Shown here piece by piece: positions 4,499 to 43,809 of a stretch of 64,000 nt of DNA. The stretch spans positions 320,001 through 384,000 of the forward strand of contig OY762428.1 in assembly GCA_963665665.1 (NCBI GenBank). The letters are read 5' to 3'. The notes under the pieces were generated by a model. That model ran no database searches, had not been told where the DNA came from, and saw only the letters and a list, made by a program, of their open reading frames with translations. Source of the DNA: Candidatus Kapaibacterium sp. (lineage in GTDB: Bacteria; Bacteroidota; Ignavibacteria; Kapaibacteriales; UBA2268). How positions within the stretch are numbered: position 1 is the first letter of the stretch; every line of letters begins with the position of its first letter. A program made the translations under genes and the position numbers.

Positions 4499-5701
4499 AT
4501 GGGACCTTTAGTGCCTTTTGGAATTATTGGATCAGAATTTAACTACCTGATTGCAGCCCTTATTGGTTTTGCATTTGGATATATTCTGGAAAGGGCTGGT
4601 TTTTCTACGTCAAGAAAACTTGTCGGCGTATTTTATGGTTATGATTTTGTTGTTCTCAGGGTATTTTTTACTGCTGCCGCAACAGCAATGACGGGATTGA
4701 TTGTTCTTGATTATCTTGGCTTCATTGATTTTAGTTTTATATATATCAACCCACTGTTCACATGGCCGATGATAGTTGGTGGCATCATTATGGGATTTGG
4801 ATTCATTCTTGGTGGATTTTGTCCTGGAACAAGTATGGCTGCTGCTGCAATTGGAAAAATTGACGCAATGGTATTTTTACTTGGCAGTTTTATCGGAATA
4901 TTTTTCTTCGGGGAAATATTCAGCGGAATTAAAGATTTCTACCTGAGCGGCTCGATGGGGCCAATATTCGTTTATGATTCTCTCGGTATCTCAAGAAGCC
5001 TCTTTGCAGCTATTCTCGGAGTTATTTCAATAGTATCGTTCATAGTAACTTCTGTAATTGAGAAAAAAGTAAGTTATGGCATCGAACCTAATCACCCGAA
5101 ATATAAAATGGCCATTCCGGCTATAACGATTGGATTCGCGGCGGCAATTATTATTTTGATCTTACCCGACGAACGCGAGGGATTAATTGATAAACCGGCT
5201 GATCAAATTGCTGCCGAATATAGTGATGATCTTCGTTATATATCACCGGAAGAAGCTGCTTACGAGATATATTACAACACAGGAAAATTCAATTTTATTG
5301 ATGTTCGAAGCCCTGAAGAATACAAGAAAATGTGTATGCCAAAAGCATTTAATATTGAAACCCAAAATATGCAGAACAAAGCAAACAGCGCATACCTGAA
5401 CCAACCGGGAAAAACAGCCGTATTCTATTCAAAAAACGAGGATGAAGCCGCCAAAGCATTTATTATTGCCCAAAAAGAGGGGTTTTCAAATATTGCAATT
5501 CTAAAGGACGGATTCAGTAACTTCGCGGATAAGTATATTACCGGGAAAGCAAAGATTGGCAGAGCTGCATTTATTGGCGGAAACACAGAAAACTTTCAGG
5601 ACAAAGTTATCAGTTTATTCAAATCGGATTCAACTTTGACCAAACCCAGAAAGAAAAAAGAAATAGTTGTAAAAGCAGTTAAAGTTCAGGGTGGATGTTA
5701 G
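4499..5701 (+). CDS. YeeE/YedE domain fused to a degenerate rhodanese-like domain
   Basis: FGYILERAGF, GFCPGTS (YeeE); FIDVRSPEEY...LKDGF (rhodanese fold); ends KVQGGC. Confidence 0.85.
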   Translation: MGPLVPFGIIGSEFNYLIAALIGFAFGYILERAGFSTSRKLVGVFYGYDFVVLRVFFTAAATAMTGLIVLDYLGFIDFSFIYINPLFTWPMIVGGIIMGFGFILGGFCPGTSMAAAAIGKIDAMVFLLGSFIGIFFFGEIFSGIKDFYLSGSMGPIFVYDSLGISRSLFAAILGVISIVSFIVTSVIEKKVSYGIEPNHPKYKMAIPAITIGFAAAIIILILPDEREGLIDKPADQIAAEYSDDLRYISPEEAAYEIYYNTGKFNFIDVRSPEEYKKMCMPKAFNIETQNMQNKANSAYLNQPGKTAVFYSKNEDEAAKAFIIAQKEGFSNIAILKDGFSNFADKYITGKAKIGRAAFIGGNTENFQDKVISLFKSDSTLTKPRKKKEIVVKAVKVQGGC

Positions 5702-7680: not shown

Positions 7681-8352
7681 TTGTATATGAAAGTTTTGAT
7701 ACTGAATTGTCATAAAGAAGATAATGATGATATTAACCGGATTCTTGATCCTTTTATTAAGGGTATTGAAGAATCTGGAGCCGAAGTAGAGCAGATCGAT
7801 ACCCGATCGCTTGAAATCAGTCCCTGCCGGGGATGTACCTCATCGATTAGCTTCAAATCTGATGGGCATTGTTTCTGCGAAGATGATATGAATTCCTTAT
7901 ATCCAAAATTCAGAGAATCTGATATTTGGGTTTTCACATCTTCCGACGACGGGAATTGCAATAATCCCAAACTGATGAACATAATGGACAGAATGGAACC
8001 TCTTTTTCCGAAAACATTTGAAGATGATACTGATATGAAAGGAAAAATTGCTTTTATATCTACAACAAAATCAAATACCGGCGAAAAAATCCAAACTGTG
8101 GCCGATGAGTTTATGAGCATAAGTGCCCTGTTCAATAAAGAATATGCCGGTGCATTACTCAGGCCCCAGGCTTCGTCGATCAAAGTTGTGCAAAATCTTG
8201 GAGGAAATATCGATGATATTTTCCAGGCCGCCAAAGACGCTGGAAAGCAAATAATTTTAAACGGCAAAATTGAATCCAATACGATTAAAACATTTGAGAG
8301 AAGCCTTTTTGATGATAAAAAGCTTCTAGAAGTTCTTGCGTCAAAAGTATAA
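7681..8352 (+). CDS. Flavodoxin-fold protein related to iron-sulfur flavoprotein / NADPH-dependent FMN reductase
   Basis: MKVLILN start, GAEVE, PCRGC...HC.CEDDM, 'A..AGK' C-terminus; canonical FMN motifs degenerate. Confidence 0.7.
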   Translation: MYMKVLILNCHKEDNDDINRILDPFIKGIEESGAEVEQIDTRSLEISPCRGCTSSISFKSDGHCFCEDDMNSLYPKFRESDIWVFTSSDDGNCNNPKLMNIMDRMEPLFPKTFEDDTDMKGKIAFISTTKSNTGEKIQTVADEFMSISALFNKEYAGALLRPQASSIKVVQNLGGNIDDIFQAAKDAGKQIILNGKIESNTIKTFERSLFDDKKLLEVLASKV

Positions 8353-8373: not shown

Positions 8374-8402
8374 AAAAACCACCAGTTCTGGTGGTTTTTT
8401 TT
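8374..8402 (+). terminator. Intrinsic terminator
   Basis: AAAAACCACCAG-TT-CTGGTGGTTTTTTTT. Confidence 0.8.
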
Positions 8403-8647
8403 GTTAATCCTTTATTATCAACGATTACAATTGAAAACCCTCGGAAAATTTTAATGTAATATTCCTGAAAAGCAATATTTTTTCTAAAAACTTTAAACTT
8501 TTTCTTTTTCAATGTGTATATGAAACAAGAGTAATTTATCTTATTTTGAATTGTTATGATTTGTAACTATTTTTGAAATACACATATTGATTGCGAAATA
8601 TAGGTTTAAATGAAAGATTAACGAATATTAATGCAGAAGTCGGGAAA

Positions 8648-9990
8648 ATGAAAAAACAGTTTTGGATAGTATTGATTTTAATAATTGGTTCGGTAAATGT
8701 TTCCGCACAATGGGAATGCAGAAGTAAACTTGCAGCTCATCTTAGCCCTATAGCAGGATCTGATTTGCTATGGGCTGCCGAATTCACTCTTGGCGGCGGA
8801 GTTTTAAGCCATAATAATATATATAATTACCTTGGGCTTGTTGCTCTGGACTACAGCTTCGATAATAGTACTTTTTATATTGAAGGTGGCGGCAAATACT
8901 GGCAGAACAGACAGGAAAACCCGGATGTGATCTTCAAAAAAGGACGGCCCGGTTTACGTGAGGCATATTTTAAAAACAGATCAAAATTTGGCGATATTAC
9001 AATAGGCCTTCAATCAATTACACTTAATGATGACTACCTTTTGAATGAAAGAATACTCGGGCTGAATTACAAGCTAAATTCAGGTAAATGGATGATAAAT
9101 CTTACCGGAGGTACTGTTTCACAGGATTTTTCACGTCAGGGAACATTTTGCGGTACATGTTTCTTATACGACATTATACCCGGCAGACAAAGAAATTTAA
9201 TCAGCCACGAACTGGGCCGGTCAAATTTTACTGTAATTTCATTTAGTTATTCCCCGCGTTTAGAAGTTGATGAAGAATACGAAGAATTAGCGGACGATGA
9301 GTTTGCTGATGTTTCAGATGAGTTTTCTGACGCAGGGGATGAATTTGAAGATGTTTCAGACGTGTTTTCAGATGCATCTGATGAATTCGGAGAATTTGAC
9401 GAAACAGTAGCAAAATCTACCCCATTTGCGAAGATTGAAGAAACCGGAGCAGTTCTATATACAGAATTTGGAAGCATTTACAATAACCTTCCCATTTTGG
9501 GTGGATTATTCTTTGACTTGTCATTCTTTGAAGACTGGCATATCAAACCGGAATTATTATACCAGGCCCAGAATGAAAACAACGGAATTATATTTAACTT
9601 TTCTCTGAGAAGAGATATTATTTGGGAAAACACTCATAAAACAGGATTTGTACTTGAATATACGGGATTTTCCGCAATTGATGACAATGCTTTCGCGGCA
9701 AATTCATTTCAAATATTTTCGCCGGTGAAGTTTTAAGGCTGGATATTCCCGAATCTGACATTGTTTTGGTTGGTATAAGGCATATAATACCATCATCCAA
9801 ACTTCATTTCAAACTTCAGTACGCGGAACTGATAGATGAACCGGGTATGAGGGAAATTGACTTCCAGGCCGGTAAAACATTTTTTGACCACTTGCTGGTT
9901 AACGTTATATTTGGATATATTGAAAGTAATTTGATAATCAACAGGGATTCAGCGCTTCTTGCCAGGATGGAAATAAGGCTAAGTTTTTAA
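8648..9990 (+). pseudogene. Outer-membrane beta-barrel protein split by a single -1 frameshift (ORFs 8591..9736 and 9766..9990); mutation or assembly error
   Basis: Signal peptide MKKQFWIV...VSA-Q; alternating aromatic beta-strands; adding one T at 9707-9709 gives ...NSFSNIFAGEVLRLDIPESDIVLVGIRH... ending RMEIRLSF (C-terminal Phe). Confidence 0.7.
9296..9397 (+). repeat. Degenerate 21-bp tandem repeat (about 5 copies) encoding DEFxDxx heptads
   Basis: gatgagtttgctgatgtttca / gatgagttttctgacgcaggg / gatgaatttgaagatgtttca / gacgtgttttcagatgcatct / gatgaattcggagaattt. Confidence 0.85.
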
Positions 9991-10010
9991 TATTTTGTAA
10001 GGAAAAAACG

Positions 10011-10277
10011 ATGAAAAGAAGAGAATTCTGCAGAAGCTTCCTTGGTTTTGGAAGCACAATTGTACTGGCCGGAGCAATAAGTTCATGTGGTGTACTCGAA
10101 GCAGGAGTTTACACGATAAACCAGGAAAATTGCGATGGTTGCGGAGACTGTGTTAACTCATGTAGTTACGGTGCTATCGAATTGAAAGATGATAAAGCAG
10201 CCATTCTGACATCAAAATGCGAAGGCTGCGGTAAATGTAAAAGTAAATGTGATAACGGGGCGATCAGTGAAGAGTAA
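10011..10277 (+). CDS. 2[4Fe-4S] ferredoxin with Tat-lipoprotein signal
   Basis: MKRREF twin-Arg, lipobox ISSC; CDGCGDCVNSC and CEGCGKCKSKC. Confidence 0.85.
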   Translation: MKRREFCRSFLGFGSTIVLAGAISSCGVLEAGVYTINQENCDGCGDCVNSCSYGAIELKDDKAAILTSKCEGCGKCKSKCDNGAISEE

Positions 10278-10296
10278 CAATAATTCAAACAGTTGT

Positions 10297-11655
10297 ATGA
10301 ACAGGAGAAATTTCCTGTCAGGAATAGGAAAAGTAACAGCAGTTGCTGCTTTTATGCCAATAATAAACGCCTGCGAAAACCCGAGCATGTATTCTGCTCT
10401 TGCAGTAAATGAGGAGCTTTGTACCGGTTGCGGAGACTGTCTTCCACATTGCTTTTACGATGCCATTGACCTGCCGGCAAAAAGTAAATACACAATACTT
10501 ACAGATACTTGTACCAGGTGTGGGCTTTGCCTTGATGCCTGCCCTGACGATGCAATTACACTTGTTCCGAGTTTATATTCAATAGATAGGGAAAAATGTA
10601 TTGAATGCGGGGAATGCCTGCCATTCTGCAAGGATAATGCCCTGATAATTACTCCAAAAAATTATACTATTAATGAGGATAAATGTATAGAATGCGGTGA
10701 ATGTATCCCATCCTGCCCCGAGGATGCTTTTGAAATTGCCGTTAAAGAATACCGGATTGATGATGACGAATGTACTGATTGCGGAGATTGCTTGAAAGTA
10801 TGCGAACCTGATGCGATCAAACTTCATATCACTGATCTGAAATATACGATTAATGATTCTTGCATTGGTTGTGGCGACTGCGTTGAGGAATGCAAAGAAG
10901 AAGGAGATGCTATCTTCTACGTCAGGGAGCATTATAATATCAGAAATGGCCGCTGCCACGGATGTATCCAGAAATGTAGTTCTGTTTGCGAGGATGATGC
11001 AATTTTTCTTGAGAGCGGAAAAGTAAAAATTGATGAAGATAAATGCACAAAATGCGGAAAGTGCCTTGAACGCTGCCCTTATGCAGCTATCAATAAAGCC
11101 TATGTCGAGATTGACCAGAATAGATGCACTAAATGTGGCGAATGTTACGGAGAATGTGAATATGATGCCATAAACAAACTGGGAACAGTTAACAACTTCA
11201 ATTCCCACATCGATCAGGATAAATGTACAAGTTGTGGTGAATGCTATACAGCATGCACCCACGAAGCAATTGATATAAAGCAGGCTTCCGAACCGGAACA
11301 TCCGGGGATTAACCAGGATAAATGCACCAACTGCGGGAAATGTATATCCGAATGCCCTTATGAAGCAATCGAAGTTGATGGATCTGACGGTGATCCTCAT
11401 ATTGACCAGGATCTGTGTACTAATTGCGGCGATTGCGTTCCCGGTTGCCCCTATGATGCAATTAATGTGAATGAATCTGAGATATTACCAAATATAGATC
11501 AGGATAAATGTTCCAAATGCGGTGATTGTTATGATGTATGTGAGGATGAATCAATTAACGCAGTTATCAGCACAGCCAGAATAATTGATGAGAACTGTTA
11601 CAAATGCGGTAAATGCCTGGAGGTTTGCCCGGAGCATGCAATTAAGAATGTTTAA
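10297..11655 (+). CDS. Polyferredoxin (14 [4Fe-4S] motifs) with Tat-lipoprotein signal
   Basis: Start at ATG 10297 gives MNRRNFL...PIINAC; 13 CxxCxxCxxxC motifs plus one CxxCxxxCxxxC variant. Confidence 0.88.
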   Translation: MNRRNFLSGIGKVTAVAAFMPIINACENPSMYSALAVNEELCTGCGDCLPHCFYDAIDLPAKSKYTILTDTCTRCGLCLDACPDDAITLVPSLYSIDREKCIECGECLPFCKDNALIITPKNYTINEDKCIECGECIPSCPEDAFEIAVKEYRIDDDECTDCGDCLKVCEPDAIKLHITDLKYTINDSCIGCGDCVEECKEEGDAIFYVREHYNIRNGRCHGCIQKCSSVCEDDAIFLESGKVKIDEDKCTKCGKCLERCPYAAINKAYVEIDQNRCTKCGECYGECEYDAINKLGTVNNFNSHIDQDKCTSCGECYTACTHEAIDIKQASEPEHPGINQDKCTNCGKCISECPYEAIEVDGSDGDPHIDQDLCTNCGDCVPGCPYDAINVNESEILPNIDQDKCSKCGDCYDVCEDESINAVISTARIIDENCYKCGKCLEVCPEHAIKNV

Positions 11656-11656
11656 T

Positions 11657-12046
11657 ATGCGAAGGTCAATAATTATATTGTTGCTCCTTGTTCCCACATT
11701 TTTCATATCCGGAAAATTATTAGCCGGTTCCGGGAAAGCTGTTGCAAAAGTCAAAGTCATCTCTCCGGAAACTCATAAATATAACATCGGAGATACTCTT
11801 AATGTTATTATAATGATAAAACTGCCAAAAGAAATTTGCCTGGAAGGAATGAAGTTCACAAAAGTTTTTGCAAGTGGAATGGATATTATTAGCGAAAAAA
11901 ACTGGAAACCTGTAAAACCCGGTTTTTGGAAAAAGAAATTGAAACTGGTTTTTAATAATCACAATAACCAATTCGGACAACTTACAATATATAGAAAAGC
12001 TGATAAAGGCAGCCTTATTCATAAAGAAAAATTTTACCTGCAATAG
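11657..12046 (+). CDS. Small secreted basic protein of unknown function
   Basis: ATG 1 bp after the polyferredoxin stop; MRRSIIILLLL signal peptide; Lys-rich, beta-strand-like. Confidence 0.65.
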   Translation: MRRSIIILLLLVPTFFISGKLLAGSGKAVAKVKVISPETHKYNIGDTLNVIIMIKLPKEICLEGMKFTKVFASGMDIISEKNWKPVKPGFWKKKLKLVFNNHNNQFGQLTIYRKADKGSLIHKEKFYLQ

Positions 12047-13069
12047 ATGAATACTTTAGTTAACATATCGACAGGCAAAAAAAGCTTCAGGGAGTTACTT
12101 GCCCGCTGGATTGTCATTGGCGGAATAATATTAATGGCTGCCGATACAATATACATGGCTTACAACGGAATAAACGCTGCAAACCGGCAATTGTGTATTA
12201 TATACTGTTCGCTGCCGCGTTGGGCTTTTTTCACATGGGAATATATCATCGAACTTCTTCTTGTTGTCCTGGTAGGAGTTTTTGCAGGAGTTCTGATTGA
12301 GCACTATTCCAAAAAAATAAAAAGATTTTACCCCAAAAATCCGTTTCTAGCATTTGTTTACGCTTCAATTATTCCTGTATGTTCCTGTGGTGTCATTCCT
12401 GTTATTGATTCCCTGAAGGGCGATATTAAGTTGAAAACTATCATCACATTTGTGATTGCAGCACCTTTGCTAAACCCTTATATAATATTTATTTCATTCA
12501 GCGTTTTGGGTTGGGAATACGCTTTGATTCGAATTGCCGCCTCATTTGTGATTGCTGTTGGTGGAGGATTCCTGGCAGAAAGCGTTTTTAGAAAATTCAA
12601 CCTGAATATCCAGAACGGGAAAAAGCAATGCTCTTCAAGCTGCGCTGTCCATGAAAAAGACCTGTTCGTAAAGACACTCAAAATCATGCGCAAGCTTCTG
12701 CCCTATATAATAATTGCCGGAGCACTTACACTATCATTCGAATTTCTTACGCCAAAAAGATTTCTGGAAACACTGAATTTTTCTAATGAACCATTATCAA
12801 TGGCGCTTATGCTTGTTGTCGGTATTCCAATCTATGTTTGCAACGGAGCTGATGTATTATTTCTACGCCCGCTATTGGAATTCACTGATCTTTCCCTGGC
12901 ATCAGCCATGATCTTTTCCCTTGCTTCATCATCAGTATGTATTTCTTCAATCGTTATGCTTGCAAAATATCTTGGCCGAAAACAGACTGCTATTCTTATC
13001 GGAATATTGACCGTATTAATTTTCGGTGTAGCTTTTACAATAAATGTTGTAAGCGGTATCATGGGGTAA
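12047..13069 (+). CDS. DUF318/ArsP-family permease
   Basis: PVCSCGVIP, FVIAAPLLNP, GIPIYVCNG; about 9 TM segments; abuts upstream stop. Confidence 0.85.
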   Translation: MNTLVNISTGKKSFRELLARWIVIGGIILMAADTIYMAYNGINAANRQLCIIYCSLPRWAFFTWEYIIELLLVVLVGVFAGVLIEHYSKKIKRFYPKNPFLAFVYASIIPVCSCGVIPVIDSLKGDIKLKTIITFVIAAPLLNPYIIFISFSVLGWEYALIRIAASFVIAVGGGFLAESVFRKFNLNIQNGKKQCSSSCAVHEKDLFVKTLKIMRKLLPYIIIAGALTLSFEFLTPKRFLETLNFSNEPLSMALMLVVGIPIYVCNGADVLFLRPLLEFTDLSLASAMIFSLASSSVCISSIVMLAKYLGRKQTAILIGILTVLIFGVAFTINVVSGIMG

Positions 13070-15260: not shown

Positions 15261-15485
15261 CAGTGTTAGAGTTAAAATTATTTGATGTAAAAAACAGATA
15301 AAATATCTTACTACTTCAAAATTATCCATACCTAAACCGGAGATATGCTTCCCACAAACTTAACATCTAATAACTTGCCATTTTTATAAGTGGAACTACT
15401 TAATTTAATTATTAATTATACTAAATATCATTAGAATGCGTTTTCACGTTATATTACTATTTTTTCATCTATTGTGGGGACTTAT

Positions 15486-16664
15486 ATGTTTAAAAAATCT
15501 ATACTCCTTTTGCTTATAGCATTTATTTGTTGGCCTTCTGGTTTATCCTTTTCTCAGGAAAAAGATTTATATCTTGGAATCGGAGCCGGTTTGTCGCGAG
15601 GCATGAACGAAGGCAAAAGAGACGAAAGAACCATTGGCGCTGTATTCGGGGCCAACGCACTAATTACTAATGCCATCGGAAAGGGTTTGACTCCGGAATT
15701 CAATTTCAACTATTTTAAAAATGGTACGGACGAATTCGGGCTTTATTCCCAATACGAAACTACTCACATGACATTCGACTTGCGTATGAGGTTTTATCCT
15801 TTTGAGCAGAAAGGCTTGCAGCCTTATGCTTTTGCCGGACTCGGAGCAATAATGTTCAATGTTGATGAAATGCCTCCAAATCCCGATCCCGAATCCGAGG
15901 ACAGTGGTGTGGCATTGAATATCCCTGTTGGGGTTGGTATTTCATATTTCTTCAACGAAACTGTCGGGCTGGACTTTAATGCCGGAGCTTACATGACCAG
16001 TACTGATGATATAAACCCGGTTTGGGATGATGTGACTGATGCAAACTGGGTTGGGAAGCTTTCGGTCCTTTTCAGGGTTCACAGGTTTGAAAAGGACACA
16101 GATGGCGACGGCCTTTCAGATAAAGAAGAAATGAAACTTGGAACAGATCCGAATAATCCTGATTCTGACGGCGACGGTCTGATGGACGGAGAGGAAGTTA
16201 ATGAATACAAAACAGATCCTCTCAATCCGGATACAGACGGCGGAGGAATAAAAGACGGCGTTGAAGTACAAAACGGAGCCGATCCTCTTGACGGGGATGA
16301 CGACATTCTAAGTATCAAACCCGGTGAAAAACTTATCCTGAAAAACATCGAGTTCGAATTTGCCAAATCCAGAATAACTAATAAATCAGAGAGGATTCTT
16401 GGATTTGCAGTTAAAGCTTTGAAAGCCGCTGAAAACATGGAAATTGAAATTGTTGGCCATACTGACGATGTTGGTGATATTGAAACCAACCTGAAACTCT
16501 CTCAGGACCGTGCTGATGCTGTTAAGAAATGGCTTGTTGACAATGGAATTGACGAGTCAAGGTTATCGACCCGTGGCGAAGGGCCTAATCAGCCTCTTGT
16601 TCCGAATACAAATGCCACAAACAGGCAGAAAAACAGAAGAGTGGAATTTATCAGAACAAAATAA
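15486..16664 (+). CDS. OmpA-family protein: N-terminal beta-barrel, TSP3-like Ca-binding repeats, peptidoglycan-binding domain
   Basis: DTDGDGLSD / DSDGDGLMD / DTDGGG repeats; GHTD, NLKLSQDRA, NRRVEF. Confidence 0.9.
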   Translation: MFKKSILLLLIAFICWPSGLSFSQEKDLYLGIGAGLSRGMNEGKRDERTIGAVFGANALITNAIGKGLTPEFNFNYFKNGTDEFGLYSQYETTHMTFDLRMRFYPFEQKGLQPYAFAGLGAIMFNVDEMPPNPDPESEDSGVALNIPVGVGISYFFNETVGLDFNAGAYMTSTDDINPVWDDVTDANWVGKLSVLFRVHRFEKDTDGDGLSDKEEMKLGTDPNNPDSDGDGLMDGEEVNEYKTDPLNPDTDGGGIKDGVEVQNGADPLDGDDDILSIKPGEKLILKNIEFEFAKSRITNKSERILGFAVKALKAAENMEIEIVGHTDDVGDIETNLKLSQDRADAVKKWLVDNGIDESRLSTRGEGPNQPLVPNTNATNRQKNRRVEFIRTK

Positions 16665-37152: not shown

Positions 37153-40100
37153 ATGAAGATGAAAAAGTTTTTACTGCTATTTTTAGTATCAGCATTATTG
37201 ATATTTTCCAATAGTGCCTACGCGGATATATTGGAAGTGGACGGATATACTTATGATCCGGACGAACTGGTTGAAGACGTTCTTCTTGGCGGAGGTATTT
37301 CCGTTACCAGCGTAACTTTTTTTGGCCTTGATAATTCATGGCTGTATCCTTCTGTCGGAACATTTGACGGCGAAGGAACGGACATAGGACTTGATGAAGG
37401 TATATTCCTTTCTTCAGGATTTGTATCAAATGCTTCGATGACAAATACTTATCCCAATATGACCGGCGAAATTTATACAGACGGTGACGATGACCTGGAT
37501 ATATTGATTGATCCTTATGTCACAATGGATAAGACAATATTGGAATTCGAATTTGTTCCAATTTTTGAAACTGTTGAATTCCGCTATGTTTTTGCATCCG
37601 AGGAATACCGGGAATGGGTTTGTAGCCAATTCAATGATGTTTTTGGATTTTTCGTTAGCGGCCCGGGTATTGACGGAGAGGACGGATTTGAAAATGATGC
37701 AATAAATATTGCAATTGTTCCGAATACAACCGACGTTGAAGTGGCAATCAATTCTGTTAATGACGGTTGTCATGATACGGAAGACGGAACAGACCCGATA
37801 TGTCCTTCTGTGTGCACGCCATCAAATACTATGTATTTTAATTGTAATGTTCCCGAATCCTGTGATCTTGATGGAGAGACAGTTGAATTCGACGGTTATA
37901 CAGATGTTTTCACTGCTCGTATCACAAATCTGGAACCATGTGAAACCTACAGGATTAAACTTGCTGTTGCTGATGCCGGTGACCGCTTGTATGATTCAGG
38001 TGTGTTCCTGGAGGCCGGATCGTTTACTTCAGTTGGTGAATACGGTGGTACTGAGGTAACTGTATGCTCGGGTGAAGATATTCAGATTGGCCCTGATGAA
38101 GTTTCAGGATTAACATATACCTGGACAGACCCGAACGGATACCTGAGTTCAACCAGCGCAGCTAACCCTGTTGTAAATATTACAAATACAAGCGGCGAAC
38201 CGGTTGATTATACATTTCCTCTGGAAATATCCGATTGTATTTCAACAACTTTTACAGTTACTGTAAATCCCGAACCGACACCTGATATTACCGGCGACGA
38301 AGAAGTTTGCCCTAATTCAGAGGGTGTTGAATATTATATTGATGCAATAAGCGATGCTTCCTACACATGGACTGTTGCTGGAAATATTTCAATTGCCAGC
38401 GGAACAAGTTCATCAACAGCTACAATGAATTTCACATCGGCAGGAAGTGCTACTATAACTGTTGCCGTAACAAATGCAGACGGATGCGTTGGTGAAGATA
38501 CTTTTGAAGTAACAATCAATGAAGATCCACCGGATCCGACAGTATATGGTTATTACCAGTGTGAAGAAGAAACCGTAACCTATACTCCTGTTTACGGCGA
38601 CGACTCAGCTTACGATTACGAATGGTCAGTAACCGGAGGTACAATAGTTGGCGACAACACAAACGCGCAATTTACCATAGCCTGGGGAACTGTTCCCGGA
38701 GACTATGAGATAAGCGTGCTGGTAACTGATAAAGAAACCGGATGCGAGGCAACTTATGAATACCCGGTCAGCCTGAATTATAAACCTACTGCTGAATTTA
38801 CTGGTGACATCAGTGTTTGTGCCGGAGGCCAGACTAGTTATAGCGCTACTGATGTTATCGATGATGGTGGCGAAGGCGGCTATGAAAGTGAGATGTTCTA
38901 TTCATGGTCAGTTACCGGCGGAACTATTGTTGTTCAAACCTTGGATGGCGAACATATACTGGTTGAATGGCCAACAACAGGAGGCTCTGCTACCGTTTCG
39001 CTTATCCAGACATCCTATGATGTTGGCGTAATGTGTACAAACGAGACAGAGCAGGTTATAACTATTGTTGAGCTAAGTCCGGAAATATATTGCGGCGATG
39101 ACGAAACAGACTGTAGTGCCTGTGCAAATGAAGAAGGCCAGATATTTTATACTGATGCTGATGAAGACCTGACTTACGAATGGTCAATCTCGGGAGGTAC
39201 AATTGTAAGTAATTTGATGCCTTATCAGATTGAAGTTGACTGGGGAGATGTTAGCCCCGGATCAATATCATTAACAGTAACCGAGATTGAATCGGGCTGT
39301 ACCGGTACTGCTGTAATGGAAGTAACACTAAACGAGAATCCTGATCCGATTATAATGGGAGACTGGGAAGCCTGTGAAGATGGAACGGGATCGCAGTTCC
39401 TGGTAATTAATCCTGAAGAAGGTGATACATATAGCTGGACAGTTGACTCTCCGGGAACAATCGTGGGTTCCGCTACAAGCAGTTCCATATCAGTTGACTG
39501 GGATGGCGCAGGTAGCGGTTATGTAACCTGCGAAGTTACCAACAGCAGCGGCTGTACAGCAACTGAAGAATTTGAATTCTATGTTTATCCCAACCCTGAT
39601 CCTGAAATTACAGGCGATAATAGTGTTTGTGCCGGAGAATCAATGGTAGAATATTCATGTCCATTGGTTGTACGCAGATATTATGATTGGAGTGTTACAG
39701 GTGGTACAATAGTAGGATCATCGACAGGAAACAGCATTACTGTTGACTGGGGTGATGCCGGTAGCGGAACTGTTTCTGTTATTGCCACAGAACGCCACAT
39801 GGAAGGCTTACTTGAATGTACCGGAACTGACGAACTTACCGTTACAATCAATCCTTTACCGGAGCCTGTAATAGCTGGAAATGCTGATGTTTGTGACAAT
39901 GCAACCGGAGAAATTTATGAAACTACAAACAATACAGGTAGTAGTTTTATATGGTTTATACATGGAAACGGATCAATAACAAATGGCGAATACACTAACC
40001 GTGTAACAGTTAACCTTTCAGTAGGTTCTGCTACACTGACAGTATACGAAACCGACGTGAACGGTTGTGAAAACTCAGATGATTTTGTTGTTACAACTCA

Positions 40101-43100
40101 TGAATATCCCGAGCCTTCAATCATTGGTACAAATGCACTTTGCGAAGGCAGCAGGAGTTCACAATATTATACAGAATACGACTCTGATAATACTTATTCC
40201 TGGACTGTTGTTGGCGGTACTATGACTGCCGGATCTGATCCTGCAAGAATTTTAGTTGACTGGGCCGGTTCTGGTACTGGAAGTGTTGAAGTAACAGAAA
40301 CAACCCCTTACGGTTGTGAATCAACAGATTTCATGACAATAGAATTATATGCAAATCCTGAACCTGAAATAACAGGAACTGAGACACTTTGTGAACTCAG
40401 CGAAGGAGAAATGTATTCTACTCCTGCAACTGAAGGCAGTACTTTCAGTTGGACAGTTAGCGGCGGTACTATCGTTGGTTCTGCTACAGGTAATTCAATT
40501 ACTGTTAACTGGGGCGATGCCGGTAGCGGTGTTGTTCAGGTTACAGAAACAAGTGCAGATGGTTGCGTTGGAATGGATGCAATGGGTATTACACTATATC
40601 CGAATCCGGAACCATCAATCAGCGGTTCCATTGAAACCTGCCAAAATGGAGAAACCCTGTCTTATTCAACGCCTTCAGTTAGTGGGCATGAATACTCATG
40701 GAGTATTACAGGCGGCAGTTTTGTTGGCGTATCAAATACATCAAGTGTAAGTGTTATCTGGGGCAGCCCCGGAACCGGAACTCTTATGGTTACTGAAACA
40801 ACCGAATACGGTTGCGAAGAAACAGATGAAATTCAGGTGACAATACTTGAGAATCCGGAACCTGTTATCAGCGGGCTTGATGAAATTTGTGAATACGAAA
40901 GCTCTGTTGTTTATACAGTTGCTGTTGACAATTCAGGCCGTGAATTCACCTATTTATGGGAAGTTACCGGTGGTACTATTGCCGGTTTAAATACAGGGCC
41001 CGGAGTAACTGTTAACTGGGGTGGCGCCGGAACAGGTACCGTAAAAGTTACTGAAACATCACAATACGGATGTGTTGGCGAATATGAAATGAGTGTTACA
41101 ATTCTAAGAAGCCCGACACCAGCTATAAGTGGCAAAATCAATGTTTGTGATGGCGAGGAAGCAGTTGCTTACCAGACAAATGCAGTAACCGGTGATACTT
41201 ATGCCTGGACTGTTAGTGGTGGTACGATTGTTAGCGGCCAGGGAACCAATACTATACTTGTTAATTGGGGAACTGCCGGTGCAGGTAATGTTTCGATAAC
41301 ACAGACTTCACAGGATGGCTGTGTTGGAGAGGATGATCTGGATGTTATGGTCAATCCTAATCCTGAGCCTATGATAACCGGTACAACAGGCCTCTGTGAA
41401 GGTGATGAAGGTCTGGTTTACCAGACTGAGAACATAGCAGGATATGACTATGAGTGGTCGGTTTCCGGCGGTACATTAGTCAGCGGCCAGGGAACAAACT
41501 CGATTACTGTCGACTGGGGTGGAGTCGGAACCGGAATGGTAGAAGTTCTTGTTACATCTGAATACGGATGTGAAGGTTCTGATGAACTTTATGTTGATAT
41601 TTATCCATATCCTACACCTGAGATAATGGGTGAAACAGAAGTATGTGCTCGTGAAACAGGTGCTGTATATTATACTTATGAAAATTCACCTGATAACAAT
41701 TATTTGTGGACTGTTACAGGCGGCAATATTTCCACCGGACAGGGAACATCGAGAATTGTTGTTACCTGGGGCGAAGCCGGAACCGGCACAGTTTCTCTTG
41801 TTGAATCTAATGATTATGGATGTAGTAGTTCAGATGAGCTTGATGTAACTATTCATCCTCTACCCGATGTTTATATTGAAGGTGAAACTATTGTTTGTGC
41901 CGACGAAGAAGCTGAATACAGAACTAATGTTGAACGTGGTACAACTGTTCTCTGGTCTGTAAGCGGAGGTACGATTATCGGCAACAATAGCGGCATTACA
42001 TGCAATGTGAAATGGGGCAGTGCAGGAACCGGTACAGTTACTCTTACAAGAACTAACAGCGAAACCGGCTGTAGTAATTCAAACGAAATTACTGTTACGG
42101 TTTACCCGATTCCTCAGCCACGCATTTCAGGCGATCAAGTTGTTTGTGGTAAATCCAGAGTTACCTATACAGCCAATAATGAACCCGGAACAAGTAATGA
42201 ATGGCTTGTTCTCAGAGGTGAGATAATTGGTGAAAATGACGGAAACAGTATTCTTGTAGAATGGGATGCTCTTGGTTCAGGCCTGGTAAGATTGACAAGA
42301 ACATCACCTGAAGGCTGTTCGAATTCAGACGAAATTGAAGTTACAATTAACCGTATGCCGCAGGCTCAGATTACCGGCGACACGGATCCCTGCTCAGGAG
42401 AAATTGCTACTTACGAGACATCCAACACCCCGGGAGCAGATTATCAATGGTCAGTTACCGGTGGTACGATTGTTGGACCTGATGACGAATACATGGTTGA
42501 TGTTGAATGGGGTAACCCTGGAAGCGGAGTTGTATATTTAACTAAAACGTCTGCCGAAGGCTGTGAAGATTCACGTTCACGCCAGGTGGATATTAAAGCT
42601 TCTCCATCAGCAAATATAACAGGCGAGATCATAGTTTGCGTTGGCCAGACCACTACTTATGACTCATTTATTGAAAATGGATCGGGTATTACAAGTAAAT
42701 GGACGCTGAGTGGCGGCGGAACAATTGACGGCCCGGATGACAGAAGCGCTGTTGATATTAACTGGACTACTGTCGGAACTTATAAAGTTCAGGTTACAAA
42801 AACAAACCAATGGGGCTGCAGCGAAACATCTGATATCGAAGTTTCAGTTGTGAATGGTCCCGAGCCGGAGATCAACGGAACAACATCAGTTTGCCTTGGT
42901 GATGACGAGATATATTCAACACCTGATGTTGCCAATATGACAAATGAATGGACTGTTGAAGGAGCAACTCTGCAATCTGGTAATACAGGAAACTCTATTG
43001 ATGTCCTGTTTGATCAGGTCGGAAATGTTACTATTACAGTTAAGCAGACAAATACTCTGAACGGTTGTGAAGGTATAGCAGAGATTGAAATAATTGTTAA

Positions 43101-43809
43101 TCCGCTGCCTGACGTTCAACTTTCATCTCTTGAGAGATGTTTGAATGACGCACCTGTTACATTAACTCAGGGAACTCCCGAGGGTGGAACTTACGATGGC
43201 CCGGGCATAACCGGTAACAACTTCGATCCGGCTGCAGCTGGTGTAGGAACTCATACCGTTACTTATACCTACACAGATGAAAACGGATGTACCGGAACAG
43301 CAGAAGCAACGTTTACTGTTCATCCGGTACCTGATAAACCGACAATAACAATCGAGGAAGATATTGCTACTTCCAGCGCAGACGAAGGGAATCAGTGGTA
43401 TAAAGATGGCTCCATGATCAGCGGGGCTACTGATAAAACACTGAAACTTACCGAAGAAGGTACCTACAGCGTGGTAGTAACTAACGAGTTTGGTTGCGAA
43501 TCGGAAGCATCAGACGGATTGTTCTTCGATCCTACAGGTGTTGAAGACCTTGCAAAGCATGGTATCAATATATTCCCGAACCCGACCGACGGACAGTTGA
43601 GAATTGAATTTGTTTCAGAAATACCGCAAAGGATAGAACTCAGGCTTACCAACCTGGTTGGAAATCTGATGCTTGAAAACGGATTTGATAATTTCAGCGG
43701 AAAATTCGTTCACAATCTTGATCTTCAGGACTACCGAAGCGGAGTTTATATTCTTGAACTTAGGATTGGTTCCAAAGTTTATCACCAGAAGATTGTTCTG
43801 AACAGGTAA
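37153..43809 (+). CDS. Giant T9SS-secreted surface protein: choice-of-anchor L-like domain, about 19 PKD-like repeats, T9SS type A CTD
   Basis: FRYVFASEEY...FNDVFGFF.SGPG...DSGVF; about 85-aa repeats (I.G...C...Y.W.V.GG.I...V.WG..G.G...GC); IFPNP...SGVY...KIV tail. Confidence 0.9.
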   Translation: MKMKKFLLLFLVSALLIFSNSAYADILEVDGYTYDPDELVEDVLLGGGISVTSVTFFGLDNSWLYPSVGTFDGEGTDIGLDEGIFLSSGFVSNASMTNTYPNMTGEIYTDGDDDLDILIDPYVTMDKTILEFEFVPIFETVEFRYVFASEEYREWVCSQFNDVFGFFVSGPGIDGEDGFENDAINIAIVPNTTDVEVAINSVNDGCHDTEDGTDPICPSVCTPSNTMYFNCNVPESCDLDGETVEFDGYTDVFTARITNLEPCETYRIKLAVADAGDRLYDSGVFLEAGSFTSVGEYGGTEVTVCSGEDIQIGPDEVSGLTYTWTDPNGYLSSTSAANPVVNITNTSGEPVDYTFPLEISDCISTTFTVTVNPEPTPDITGDEEVCPNSEGVEYYIDAISDASYTWTVAGNISIASGTSSSTATMNFTSAGSATITVAVTNADGCVGEDTFEVTINEDPPDPTVYGYYQCEEETVTYTPVYGDDSAYDYEWSVTGGTIVGDNTNAQFTIAWGTVPGDYEISVLVTDKETGCEATYEYPVSLNYKPTAEFTGDISVCAGGQTSYSATDVIDDGGEGGYESEMFYSWSVTGGTIVVQTLDGEHILVEWPTTGGSATVSLIQTSYDVGVMCTNETEQVITIVELSPEIYCGDDETDCSACANEEGQIFYTDADEDLTYEWSISGGTIVSNLMPYQIEVDWGDVSPGSISLTVTEIESGCTGTAVMEVTLNENPDPIIMGDWEACEDGTGSQFLVINPEEGDTYSWTVDSPGTIVGSATSSSISVDWDGAGSGYVTCEVTNSSGCTATEEFEFYVYPNPDPEITGDNSVCAGESMVEYSCPLVVRRYYDWSVTGGTIVGSSTGNSITVDWGDAGSGTVSVIATERHMEGLLECTGTDELTVTINPLPEPVIAGNADVCDNATGEIYETTNNTGSSFIWFIHGNGSITNGEYTNRVTVNLSVGSATLTVYETDVNGCENSDDFVVTTHEYPEPSIIGTNALCEGSRSSQYYTEYDSDNTYSWTVVGGTMTAGSDPARILVDWAGSGTGSVEVTETTPYGCESTDFMTIELYANPEPEITGTETLCELSEGEMYSTPATEGSTFSWTVSGGTIVGSATGNSITVNWGDAGSGVVQVTETSADGCVGMDAMGITLYPNPEPSISGSIETCQNGETLSYSTPSVSGHEYSWSITGGSFVGVSNTSSVSVIWGSPGTGTLMVTETTEYGCEETDEIQVTILENPEPVISGLDEICEYESSVVYTVAVDNSGREFTYLWEVTGGTIAGLNTGPGVTVNWGGAGTGTVKVTETSQYGCVGEYEMSVTILRSPTPAISGKINVCDGEEAVAYQTNAVTGDTYAWTVSGGTIVSGQGTNTILVNWGTAGAGNVSITQTSQDGCVGEDDLDVMVNPNPEPMITGTTGLCEGDEGLVYQTENIAGYDYEWSVSGGTLVSGQGTNSITVDWGGVGTGMVEVLVTSEYGCEGSDELYVDIYPYPTPEIMGETEVCARETGAVYYTYENSPDNNYLWTVTGGNISTGQGTSRIVVTWGEAGTGTVSLVESNDYGCSSSDELDVTIHPLPDVYIEGETIVCADEEAEYRTNVERGTTVLWSVSGGTIIGNNSGITCNVKWGSAGTGTVTLTRTNSETGCSNSNEITVTVYPIPQPRISGDQVVCGKSRVTYTANNEPGTSNEWLVLRGEIIGENDGNSILVEWDALGSGLVRLTRTSPEGCSNSDEIEVTINRMPQAQITGDTDPCSGEIATYETSNTPGADYQWSVTGGTIVGPDDEYMVDVEWGNPGSGVVYLTKTSAEGCEDSRSRQVDIKASPSANITGEIIVCVGQTTTYDSFIENGSGITSKWTLSGGGTIDGPDDRSAVDINWTTVGTYKVQVTKTNQWGCSETSDIEVSVVNGPEPEINGTTSVCLGDDEIYSTPDVANMTNEWTVEGATLQSGNTGNSIDVLFDQVGNVTITVKQTNTLNGCEGIAEIEIIVNPLPDVQLSSLERCLNDAPVTLTQGTPEGGTYDGPGITGNNFDPAAAGVGTHTVTYTYTDENGCTGTAEATFTVHPVPDKPTITIEEDIATSSADEGNQWYKDGSMISGATDKTLKLTEEGTYSVVVTNEFGCESEASDGLFFDPTGVEDLAKHGINIFPNPTDGQLRIEFVSEIPQRIELRLTNLVGNLMLENGFDNFSGKFVHNLDLQDYRSGVYILELRIGSKVYHQKIVLNR

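Follow-up and report, generated by a model that had tools for sequence, protein, structure and literature searches.

A conserved haem-free gene module of Bacteroidota that combines predicted exported polyferredoxins with an outer-membrane barrel and a Cys-rich permease

To our knowledge, every characterized pathway by which electrons cross the periplasm of Gram-negative bacteria to reach the outer membrane relies on multihaem cytochromes, and the exported ferredoxins known to us so far are subunits of periplasmic reductases with about four clusters. The porin–cytochrome conduits (MtrCAB, Pcc and Cyc2) are one point of comparison; the MtrB barrel has 26 strands and the Pcc porins have about 20. 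Among smaller systems, NosGH of the clade II nos clusters is comparable to NapGH, and FtrD is a membrane polyferredoxin. NapGH is described as consisting of the membrane protein NapH and NapG, a four-cluster protein exported by twin-arginine translocation (Tat), and a NapH–NapG fusion is described as Tat-translocated (eLife 2017, PMC5449189). CcoG is presented as a membrane 2 × [4Fe–4S] protein with an Ig-like periplasmic domain and as a specific cupric reductase (review, PMC7558416), and FtrABCD as joining the periplasmic FtrA, FtrB, the permease FtrC, and FtrD (PMC11966278). Here we analyse a five-gene operon in a 64,000-nucleotide (nt) stretch of a Candidatus Kapaibacterium sp. genome (assembly GCA_963665665.1, contig OY762428.1, positions 320,001 to 384,000; hereafter the window), which encodes an outer-membrane barrel, a small ferredoxin, a polyferredoxin, a small secreted protein (small2) and a permease.

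In the reading that we tentatively favour, and which we consider quite possible, these five genes make up most of a seven-part haem-free envelope module, in which a NapGH-like input feeds an Fe–S wire that leads to an outer-membrane channel and is coupled to the movement of a thiophilic metal(loid). The module probably reduces a sulfur-loving metal and moves it across the envelope without haem. It resembles NapGH in pairing a polytopic membrane protein with a twin-arginine periplasmic [4Fe–4S] ferredoxin, and its membrane protein resembles NapH in having two Fer4_5 units and a C-terminal dicluster domain. However, the exported partner has about 10–14 clusters rather than four and carries a lipobox Cys, and the membrane protein scores below the NapH cut-offs and adds a predicted periplasmic tail of acidic DEF repeats. 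Moreover, unlike NapGH and NosGH, the module contains no NapA/NapB or NosZ, and it adds an outer-membrane barrel, two predicted β-sandwich proteins and a permease. We therefore regard it as a variant form of NapGH-type electron export that also includes a metal-type permease and a channel of its own. The operon and the hairpin upstream of it are as follows.

8374–8399, + strand: terminator-like hairpin, an 11-pair stem followed by a T run, which ends the upstream FMN_red-like gene
8648–9990, + strand: barrel gene (open reading frame (ORF) listing), split in two frames in the window
10011–10277, + strand: small ferredoxin gene, 88 amino acids (aa), Fer4 match at 5.3e-12
10297–11655, + strand: polyferredoxin gene, 452 aa, Fer4 at 3.5e-74 over 12 stretches
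11657–12046, + strand: small2 gene, 129 aa, pI 10.3
12047–13069, + strand: permease gene, 340 aa, PF03773 match

The ORF listing thus agrees with the five-gene layout given in a first-pass annotation of this DNA, with all genes on the + strand and gaps of 20, 19, 1 and 0 nt, and the AT-rich stretch at 8400–8647 is likely to be the promoter region of the operon. Scans against Pfam and NCBIfam detected no molybdo-, hydrogenase or flavin family among the five proteins, consistent with the earlier view that the operon lacks a catalytic subunit.

Starting from gene content, conservation, fold class and motifs, we infer localization, the direction of electron flow, the substrate and the direction of transport as follows. 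A NapH-like inner-membrane Fe–S protein would draw on the quinol pool or a cytoplasmic donor for electrons and hand them, as in NapGH, to the Tat-exported, lipid-anchored ferredoxins (14 + 2 clusters). The ferredoxins would form an elongated NapG-like wire that crosses the periplasm and ends at or near the 18-strand channel. A thiophilic, redox-active metal(loid), most likely copper passing from Cu(II) to Cu(I), would enter by the channel and be reduced at the end of the wire. The reduced metal would then be handled by two Cys-bearing β-sandwich proteins before crossing the inner membrane through the Cys-lined permease. Both the NapH-like protein, on its predicted periplasmic tail, and the barrel, on a turn predicted to be periplasmic, carry acidic DEF repeats, which may collect cations or serve as docking sites for the basic small proteins. 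Electron flow is more plausibly outward than inward with a metal as the donor, because [4Fe–4S] clusters of the ferredoxin type have low potentials. A supply of low-potential electrons, as first supposed for this operon, is not required: the input subunit absent from the window resembles NapH, and proteins of that type are described as quinol dehydrogenases (PMC5449189).

The same order of genes is found at 31 loci from other genomes. We counted the parts over 32 related loci (L004 and L005–L035), 31 loci having come from a scan of species-representative genomes, and derived the canonical order small1 (about 125 aa), NapH-like gene (about 330–510 aa), barrel, optional small ferredoxin, polyferredoxin, small2 and permease. 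The NapH-like gene lies directly 5′ of the barrel gene or is fused to it in 30 of the 32 loci; L028 begins inside the barrel gene, and L034 lacks the NapH-like gene. A polyferredoxin gene follows downstream in 27 loci, three more being cut by contig ends and L025 and L029 having none, and in the canonical loci it encodes 334–397 aa with 9–12 clusters. The permease is present in 20/32 loci and the small ferredoxin in three (L015, L022 and L030). Throughout, small1 accompanies the NapH-like gene, and small2 accompanies the permease. In five of the six Draconibacterium loci small2 and the permease lie together upstream instead of downstream, and L009 lacks both; since they relocate together, small2 and the permease behave as one unit. 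The genes that flank the module are not conserved between clades, which indicates that the module is self-contained. The conserved order of barrel, polyferredoxin and permease answers the synteny check proposed with the first-pass annotation.

The set in the window is incomplete, as small1 and the NapH-like gene are missing from it. The source genome encodes both, as proteins of 142 and 406 aa, at G000:C1:3417563-3419225 (L042 7563-9225), about 3.1 Mb from the window; the module is split over two loci in this genome, and small1 and the NapH-like gene form a two-gene unit of their own. The NapH-like protein (L042 8005-9225) is 50% identical to the query (E = 4e-90), matches PF12801 (Fer4_5; 8.6e-14) in two stretches together with Fer4_7 and Fer4_9, has a dicluster domain, and contains the motifs GGCPC, WCGWVC and CRAACP. 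Its best NCBIfam match is NapH (1e-21), with scores below the cut-offs (77.7 versus 213.05 for TIGR02163 and 72.6 versus 234 for NF007013). Proteins of this family share an N-terminal signal or anchor, a Cys-bearing stretch, 1–10 [D/E/N]EF repeats, helices with GxCPC, WCGWxC and CxxxCP, and the C-terminal dicluster domain. A NapH-type membrane Fe–S protein joined to a periplasmic Ig-like or cupredoxin-like part is also found in CcoG/FixG and FtrABCD. Unlike CcoG, the NapH-like protein scores 30.8 against the cut-off of 316.7 for TIGR02745, in the Fer4 region only, and the Ig-like protein of the module is encoded by a separate gene and has no Pfam match; unlike FtrABCD, the module has a PF03773 permease rather than Ftr1; and both systems lack a long exported polyferredoxin and a barrel of their own. 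In two loci the NapH-like and barrel genes are fused (L030 6630-9308, 892 aa; L031 6600-9296, 898 aa), and three further fused representatives have 856–904 aa. The fusion junctions in L030 and L031 keep a basic stretch, the hydrophobic signal of the barrel and its cleavage site, with A before QWEC. These features fit a cytoplasmic C terminus of the NapH-like protein working together with an exported, probably cleaved barrel.

The 57 Cys residues of the polyferredoxin comprise one lipobox Cys and 14 four-Cys motifs (13 CxxCxxCxxxC and one CxxCxxxCxxxC), and the Cys count equals 4n + 1 in most of its homologues. The small ferredoxin has two [4Fe–4S] motifs, so that the four-Cys motifs give the same cluster numbers, 14 and 2, as the first-pass annotation. 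The N terminus of the polyferredoxin, MNRRNFL...IINAC, contains a twin-arginine motif, a hydrophobic stretch and a lipobox Cys, and the mature protein is acidic (pI 4.3); R8, R9, F11 and C31, which make up RRxF and the post-signal Cys, are invariant in all 19 aligned polyferredoxins. The small ferredoxin begins with MKRREF...AISSC, which likewise has a twin-arginine motif, followed by a lipobox-like Cys. Assignment of both proteins to the Tat pathway is suggested by this motif conservation and by the general rule that Fe–S proteins are exported folded. The earlier description of them as Tat lipoproteins is matched, for the polyferredoxin, by RRxF and the post-signal Cys (19/19), although the Tat profile hidden Markov models score below their cut-offs.

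Long tandem CxxCxxCxxxC(P) arrays are shared with the archaeal MvhB/VhuB and FwdF, and FwdF and VhuB are among the NCBIfam matches of the polyferredoxin, both below the cut-off (131 versus 375 and 126.4 versus 600, respectively). Unlike the archaeal proteins, that of the module is bacterial and has the N-terminal twin-arginine and lipobox motifs, and the module has no hydrogenase or formylmethanofuran dehydrogenase partner. The earlier statement that the characterized polyferredoxins are cytoplasmic archaeal wires overlooked the Tat-exported NapG class and the Sec/Tat NapH–NapG fusion described in PMC5449189. A phrase search of the literature, supplements not covered, found nothing on periplasmic, extracellular, secreted, Tat-dependent or lipoprotein polyferredoxins. 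Within ferredoxin domains, [4Fe–4S] clusters lie about 10–12 Å apart, and 14 clusters would therefore span roughly 150 Å, the scale of the periplasm.

The barrel has a Sec-type signal peptide that ends in VSA, and its mature N terminus is QWEC. Its gene lies in two frames in the window, 8648–9736 and 9685/9766–9990, which overlap at 9685–9736 and leave a called product of 362 aa (P0001) and an uncalled tail, whereas the aligned homologues have 400–460 aa and the family consensus NSFSNIFAGEVLRLD runs unbroken across the frame break. Compared over 9200–10200, contigs of four out of four public runs carry one extra T behind 9706; three of the runs come from one sample, possibly the source of the assembly itself (depth 25–50), and one belongs to a separate study (depth 3.4). 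A homopolymer error of the assembly, which is one T short in the T run at 9700–9712, is thus the most likely cause of the frameshift, and we rejected the alternative that the barrel gene is a pseudogene. Further homopolymer errors may exist in the assembly of the source genome.

No Pfam or NCBIfam family matched the window barrel or the L015 barrel. We folded an intact homologue, P0003, which is 100% identical to the L015 barrel and 40% identical to that of the window, using AlphaFold2 with 51 homologues. The model has 18 strands, with a predicted local distance difference test (pLDDT) score of 87.4 and a predicted template modelling (pTM) score of 0.82. A Foldseek search of the Protein Data Bank (PDB) matched it to C. 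jejuni MOMP (4.8e-11), AlgE (template modelling (TM) score up to 0.59) and OprD/Occ, all of which are 18-strand monomeric channels, at 7–13% sequence identity. The outer-membrane barrel predicted at first pass thus has its expected fold. The protein shares this predicted fold and the strand number with OprD/Occ, AlgE and MOMP; unlike them, it has no match to a sequence family and has an acidic repeat insert and two conserved Cys residues, C23, which is invariant, and C167, which is conserved in at least 90%. The acidic loop noted previously is a DEF-repeat insert at about 9290–9400, whereas the CxxC of the same description is limited to a sub-clade: in alignment A1 it occurs in 5 of 17 barrel sequences, including that of the window (A1 has 18 rows, the 18th being the C-terminal piece of the window barrel). 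As only the first Cys is kept across the family, we discarded CxxC as a conserved redox motif.

In the model, the even-to-odd strand connections are 2–5 residues long, except for connection 8–9, which carries the acidic DEF repeats. By the strand parity rule, under which the termini and short turns are periplasmic, this insert would face the periplasm. The best-conserved sequence of the family (DFARNGxFC..GYLYDI and NSFSNIFAGEVLRLD) falls within the long connections 7–8 and 13–14, which probably line or fill the lumen. In a set of 5.8 billion proteins the barrel family forms 53 clusters, all lacking a Pfam domain, and it has 172 representatives at E ≤ 1e-3 among 1.84 billion, 113 of them at E ≤ 1e-30.

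A complex prediction of the barrel with the polyferredoxin scored 0.47, versus 0.01 for the best of three controls; the runs agree in at least 87% of the contacts, and the pLDDT of the partner is 81 or more. Of the 80 solved complexes and 110 mismatched pairs used for calibration, 58 and 2, respectively, reached the mark, and passing scores of 0.60 or less, which included 7 of the 80 solved complexes and both mismatches, are more often wrong than right unless the pairing is likely beforehand. For the complex of the barrel with the ferredoxins whose modelling was suggested at first pass, the barrel–polyferredoxin pair therefore gives a weak pass, which lends weak support to an interaction. Together with the strict gene adjacency and the NapH–barrel fusions, this pass indicates that the far end of the wire is probably at the barrel, and a periplasm-crossing wire that docks on the barrel is possible.

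These properties also bear on an alternative, an Fe–S trans-envelope conduit analogous to MtrCAB and Pcc, in which electrons would pass from the NapH-like protein through the polyferredoxin and the barrel to an extracellular acceptor (a mineral, an electrode or a partner cell), or inwards from a donor such as Fe(0), with the permease and small proteins as accessories. The module shares with porin–cytochrome conduits (MtrCAB, Pcc and Cyc2) a barrel, a multi-centre periplasmic carrier and a lipid-anchored redox protein in one operon. A wire of about 10–14 clusters, or two more with the small ferredoxin, is much longer than the four-cluster NapG type and could span the periplasm; the ferredoxins would be lipid-anchored through their lipobox Cys; the barrel always adjoins genes for electron transfer, with occasional fusion to the NapH-like protein; the complex prediction agrees weakly (0.47 versus 0.01); and the carriers, judging by their names, come from sediment and vent assemblies. 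We nevertheless consider this conduit unlikely. Its barrel has 18 strands and two long conserved loops that probably fill the lumen, and a 2 × [4Fe–4S] domain would not fit an 18-strand pore, judging from known sizes. Unlike MtrB and the Pcc porins, the modelled barrel looks too narrow to sheathe a ferredoxin as MtrB does MtrA, so that an MtrAB-like sheath across the outer membrane, as envisaged earlier, is unlikely with 18 strands rather than 20–26 and long conserved loops. Moreover, the module uses Fe–S clusters, with no CxxCH haem motif in the five window proteins (the barrel taken as two pieces) or in the NapH-like partner, and encodes no surface-exposed redox protein, and [4Fe–4S] clusters outside the cell would be fragile. 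Finally, the conduit leaves unexplained the Cys set of the permease and the two small proteins with their Cys residues, all conserved to the same degree as the wire; porin–cytochrome systems have no such Cys-lined permease.

In the reading that couples the wire to metal movement, these remaining proteins have a place. The small2 protein is Sec-secreted and basic, in agreement with its earlier annotation (pI 10.3), has an invariant Cys in a C-x-D/E-G-M context and always adjoins the permease. Its predicted structure is a β-sandwich (pLDDT 86.3). The small1 protein has a Cys directly after the signal peptide and the motifs THRxC and RxCDKEGG, and the two proteins are paralogues, with C61, G74, W83 and R113 invariant. 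Neither belongs to a named family in Pfam, NCBIfam or the ESM Atlas, the last of which returned only unnamed Bacteroidota clusters for small1. Two structural likenesses of small2 were set aside as evidence, namely its best match, a β-sandwich domain of ammonia monooxygenase (1.5e-3), and the GAE 'ear' domains, which bind acidic-Phe peptides and reach a TM score of only 0.30–0.32.

The permease matches PF03773 (ArsP_1/DUF318) over residues 69–331 with 98.1 bits, above the gathering cut-off of 32.3 (6.6e-28), and has eight Cys residues, in line with the Cys-rich DUF318/ArsP permease first described here. Seven of them are conserved: C50, C112, C114, C199, C265 and C298 in 21/21 homologues and C195 in 20/21. 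They include the motifs C112-S-C114 (CSC, 21/21) and C195xxxC199. The NCBIfam name of SO_0444 is that of a Cu/Zn efflux family. Between SaoE and the SO_0444 Cu/Zn efflux family, CSC is described as the best-conserved motif, and some SO_0444 members are given as selenoproteins in which Sec-Ser-Cys replaces CSC; the same account notes that TCDB lists ArsP under the name Organo-Arsenical Exporter family and treats the exporter role of SaoE as only proposed (Haft 2022, bioRxiv 10.1101/2022.07.06.499078). The module permease is thus like ArsP, SO_0444 and SaoE in its PF03773 match and its CSC. Unlike SO_0444 and SaoE, it does not reach the equivalog cut-offs and carries four additional invariant Cys residues; it is always paired with small2 and usually accompanied by redox proteins.

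Conserved Cys residues abound in the barrel, the small proteins and the permease, and this suggests a thiophilic substrate. Copper is the leading candidate by analogy, because a redox step is needed, SO_0444 is the nearest named permease family, CcoG is a cupric reductase, and in the genome G131 the module has a CusA/CzcA-type neighbour and an adjoining ECF sigma/anti-sigma pair. In that genome, a CusA/CzcA-family resistance–nodulation–division (RND) pump fused to an outer-membrane factor, together with a CzcB-like adaptor, abuts the module (L004 1832-7290), the pump scoring 1169 bits against a CusA/CzcA cut-off of 701. The other flank (L004 11356-13038) encodes a weak CpxP/LTXXQ-like protein, a zf-HC2 anti-sigma factor and an extracytoplasmic function (ECF) sigma factor. 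With the seven conserved Cys residues, the CSC and this pump abutting one locus, the alternative already raised at first pass, a unit for metal(loid) reduction and uptake coupled to the permease, fits best. In G131, a multihaem cytochrome c of 344 aa is encoded about 4 kb beyond the flank with the sigma and anti-sigma factors.

The same permease and neighbours can be read as detoxification or export, with the permease expelling a soft metal(loid) (Cu(I), Zn, Cd, Hg, As(III) or an organometal), the small proteins acting as chaperones and the barrel releasing the product, and with the Fe–S wire reducing the metal(loid) to a less harmful or volatile form or keeping carrier thiols reduced. The named relatives of the permease are described as exporters (ArsP and SO_0444; SaoE by proposal), the G131 module stands in line with the efflux pump and the ECF sigma/anti-sigma pair, and the patchy accessory distribution of the module is typical of resistance determinants. 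On the other hand, known metal efflux systems need no electron input, and periplasmic reduction of Cu(II) would, as generally understood, raise toxicity. Neither the ORF listing nor Pfam revealed an ArsR, MerR or CsoR-type regulator adjoining the cluster in the window, and no arsenic or mercury genes were detected in the window or in the gene maps of the 32 loci, in which most flanking genes had no family scan. We accordingly judge export of this kind to be improbable.

Least convincing, and in our view very unlikely, is a role without a metal, as a periplasmic reductase with transport for a chalcogen (polysulfide, elemental sulfur, selenite or tellurite) or as a source of reductant for periplasmic thiols: Cys relays also carry persulfides, the carriers, to judge from their names, live in sulfidic habitats, some SO_0444 members are described as selenoproteins, and a gene with a YeeE/YedE-type Sulf_transp membrane domain fused to a C-terminal rhodanese domain lies 3 kb upstream, outside the operon (4499–5701), but this gene is cut off by four unrelated genes and the hairpin and has no homologue seen in the maps of the related loci, where it was not searched for, the module itself has no rhodanese, thioredoxin-fold or DsbD-like part, and nothing in the data is specific to sulfur or selenium.

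Several observations weigh against the reading we prefer, a NapGH-like wire coupled to metal movement. The Tat profiles score 14.4 (PF10518, polyferredoxin; cut-off 22.7) and 13.6 and 12.7 (TIGR01409, the latter for the small ferredoxin; cut-off 16.7), and the short ferredoxins of L030 and L031 (84–247 aa) have lipoprotein signals without RR, which are hard to square with the export of folded Fe–S proteins. A wire of about 10–14 clusters is far longer than NapG requires, and a simple periplasmic reductase leaves this length unexplained. The permease falls far short of the NCBIfam equivalog cut-offs (SO_0444, 74.4 versus 300; SaoE, 54.6 versus 325), and its characterized relatives export, which sits badly with uptake. 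The small2 fold has no PDB match at E ≤ 0.001 and no significant match to a metallochaperone, and the periplasmic side of the acidic insert is assigned by strand parity alone. The CusA/CzcA neighbour occurs in one locus only, the flanking genes being otherwise not conserved. Besides, the module is sparse, with one convincing match other than the source genome among 401 genomes of the phylum, which leaves little comparative signal for function, and no regulator ties it to any metal.

In that search of 401 genomes with the barrel, three matched: the source genome itself, one marginal partial match and G131, the one convincing other carrier. The carriers are named mostly as Draconibacterium, Saccharicrinis, Prolixibacteraceae and other Bacteroidales, and also as Lentimicrobiaceae and Kapaibacterium; other members of the barrel family have Zixibacteria names. 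The parts are of known kinds (a NapH-type protein, Fer4 arrays, an 18-strand channel and a PF03773 permease), every equivalog-level test failed, and the barrel and small-protein families are unnamed. A literature search, which extended to Fe–S extracellular electron transfer but did not cover supplements, found nothing on this module. Of the first interpretation of the operon, the barrel fold, the synteny, the haem-free composition without a catalytic subunit and the metal(loid) alternative hold, and the MtrAB-like sheath, the required low potential and the restriction of polyferredoxins to archaea do not.

It is a rather doubtful, though not negligible, possibility that the module is the first haem-free Fe–S trans-periplasmic conduit, in which the NapH-like protein would feed a lipid-anchored wire of 10–16 clusters that docks on the channel, the substrate would be reduced on entry or at the surface, and the DEF tails and the two basic β-sandwich proteins would hold the assembly together. 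If so, the module would represent a new class of redox machinery in the cell envelope, alongside the porin–cytochrome systems, and Fe–S chains could do the job of multihaem cytochromes in anoxic habitats. It would also tie redox chemistry to soft-metal transport in sediment Bacteroidota, a group whose metal physiology is almost unstudied. The module gives a testable setting to the unnamed families of the barrel and of small1 and small2, and the names of the carriers include those of cultured strains (Draconibacterium, Saccharicrinis, Carboxylicivirga and Mangrovibacterium), which makes it accessible to experiment.

Upstream of the module, L005–L008 and L010 share an element, GCAAGTTTT..N..CGTGTCC, about 110–130 nt before the first module gene. 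This Draconibacterium element resembles promoters of the ECF sigma type, and in the source genome small1 is preceded by a similar AAC..CGTGTG. Among the inverted repeats upstream of 25 operons, no operator palindrome was common to two or more loci. In the Prolixibacteraceae loci L012 (9224–10950) and L016 (same position), two extra genes, encoding about 80–121 aa and 410 aa, lie between the barrel and polyferredoxin genes; the smaller has no Pfam match.

In the window itself, an FMN_red-like protein (PF03358, 3.1e-07) with a CxxC-containing stretch is encoded at 7681–8352, just 5′ of the operon. We rejected it as a missing flavin subunit, as the hairpin at 8374–8399 separates it from the operon and none of the 32 related loci showed a homologue of it. 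Downstream, the gene at 15474–16664 encodes a secreted protein in which, by eye, an N-terminal small barrel is followed by thrombospondin type 3-like Asp-rich repeats and a C-terminal OmpA-like domain, and a very long ORF of 2218 aa occupies 37153–43809 on the + strand.

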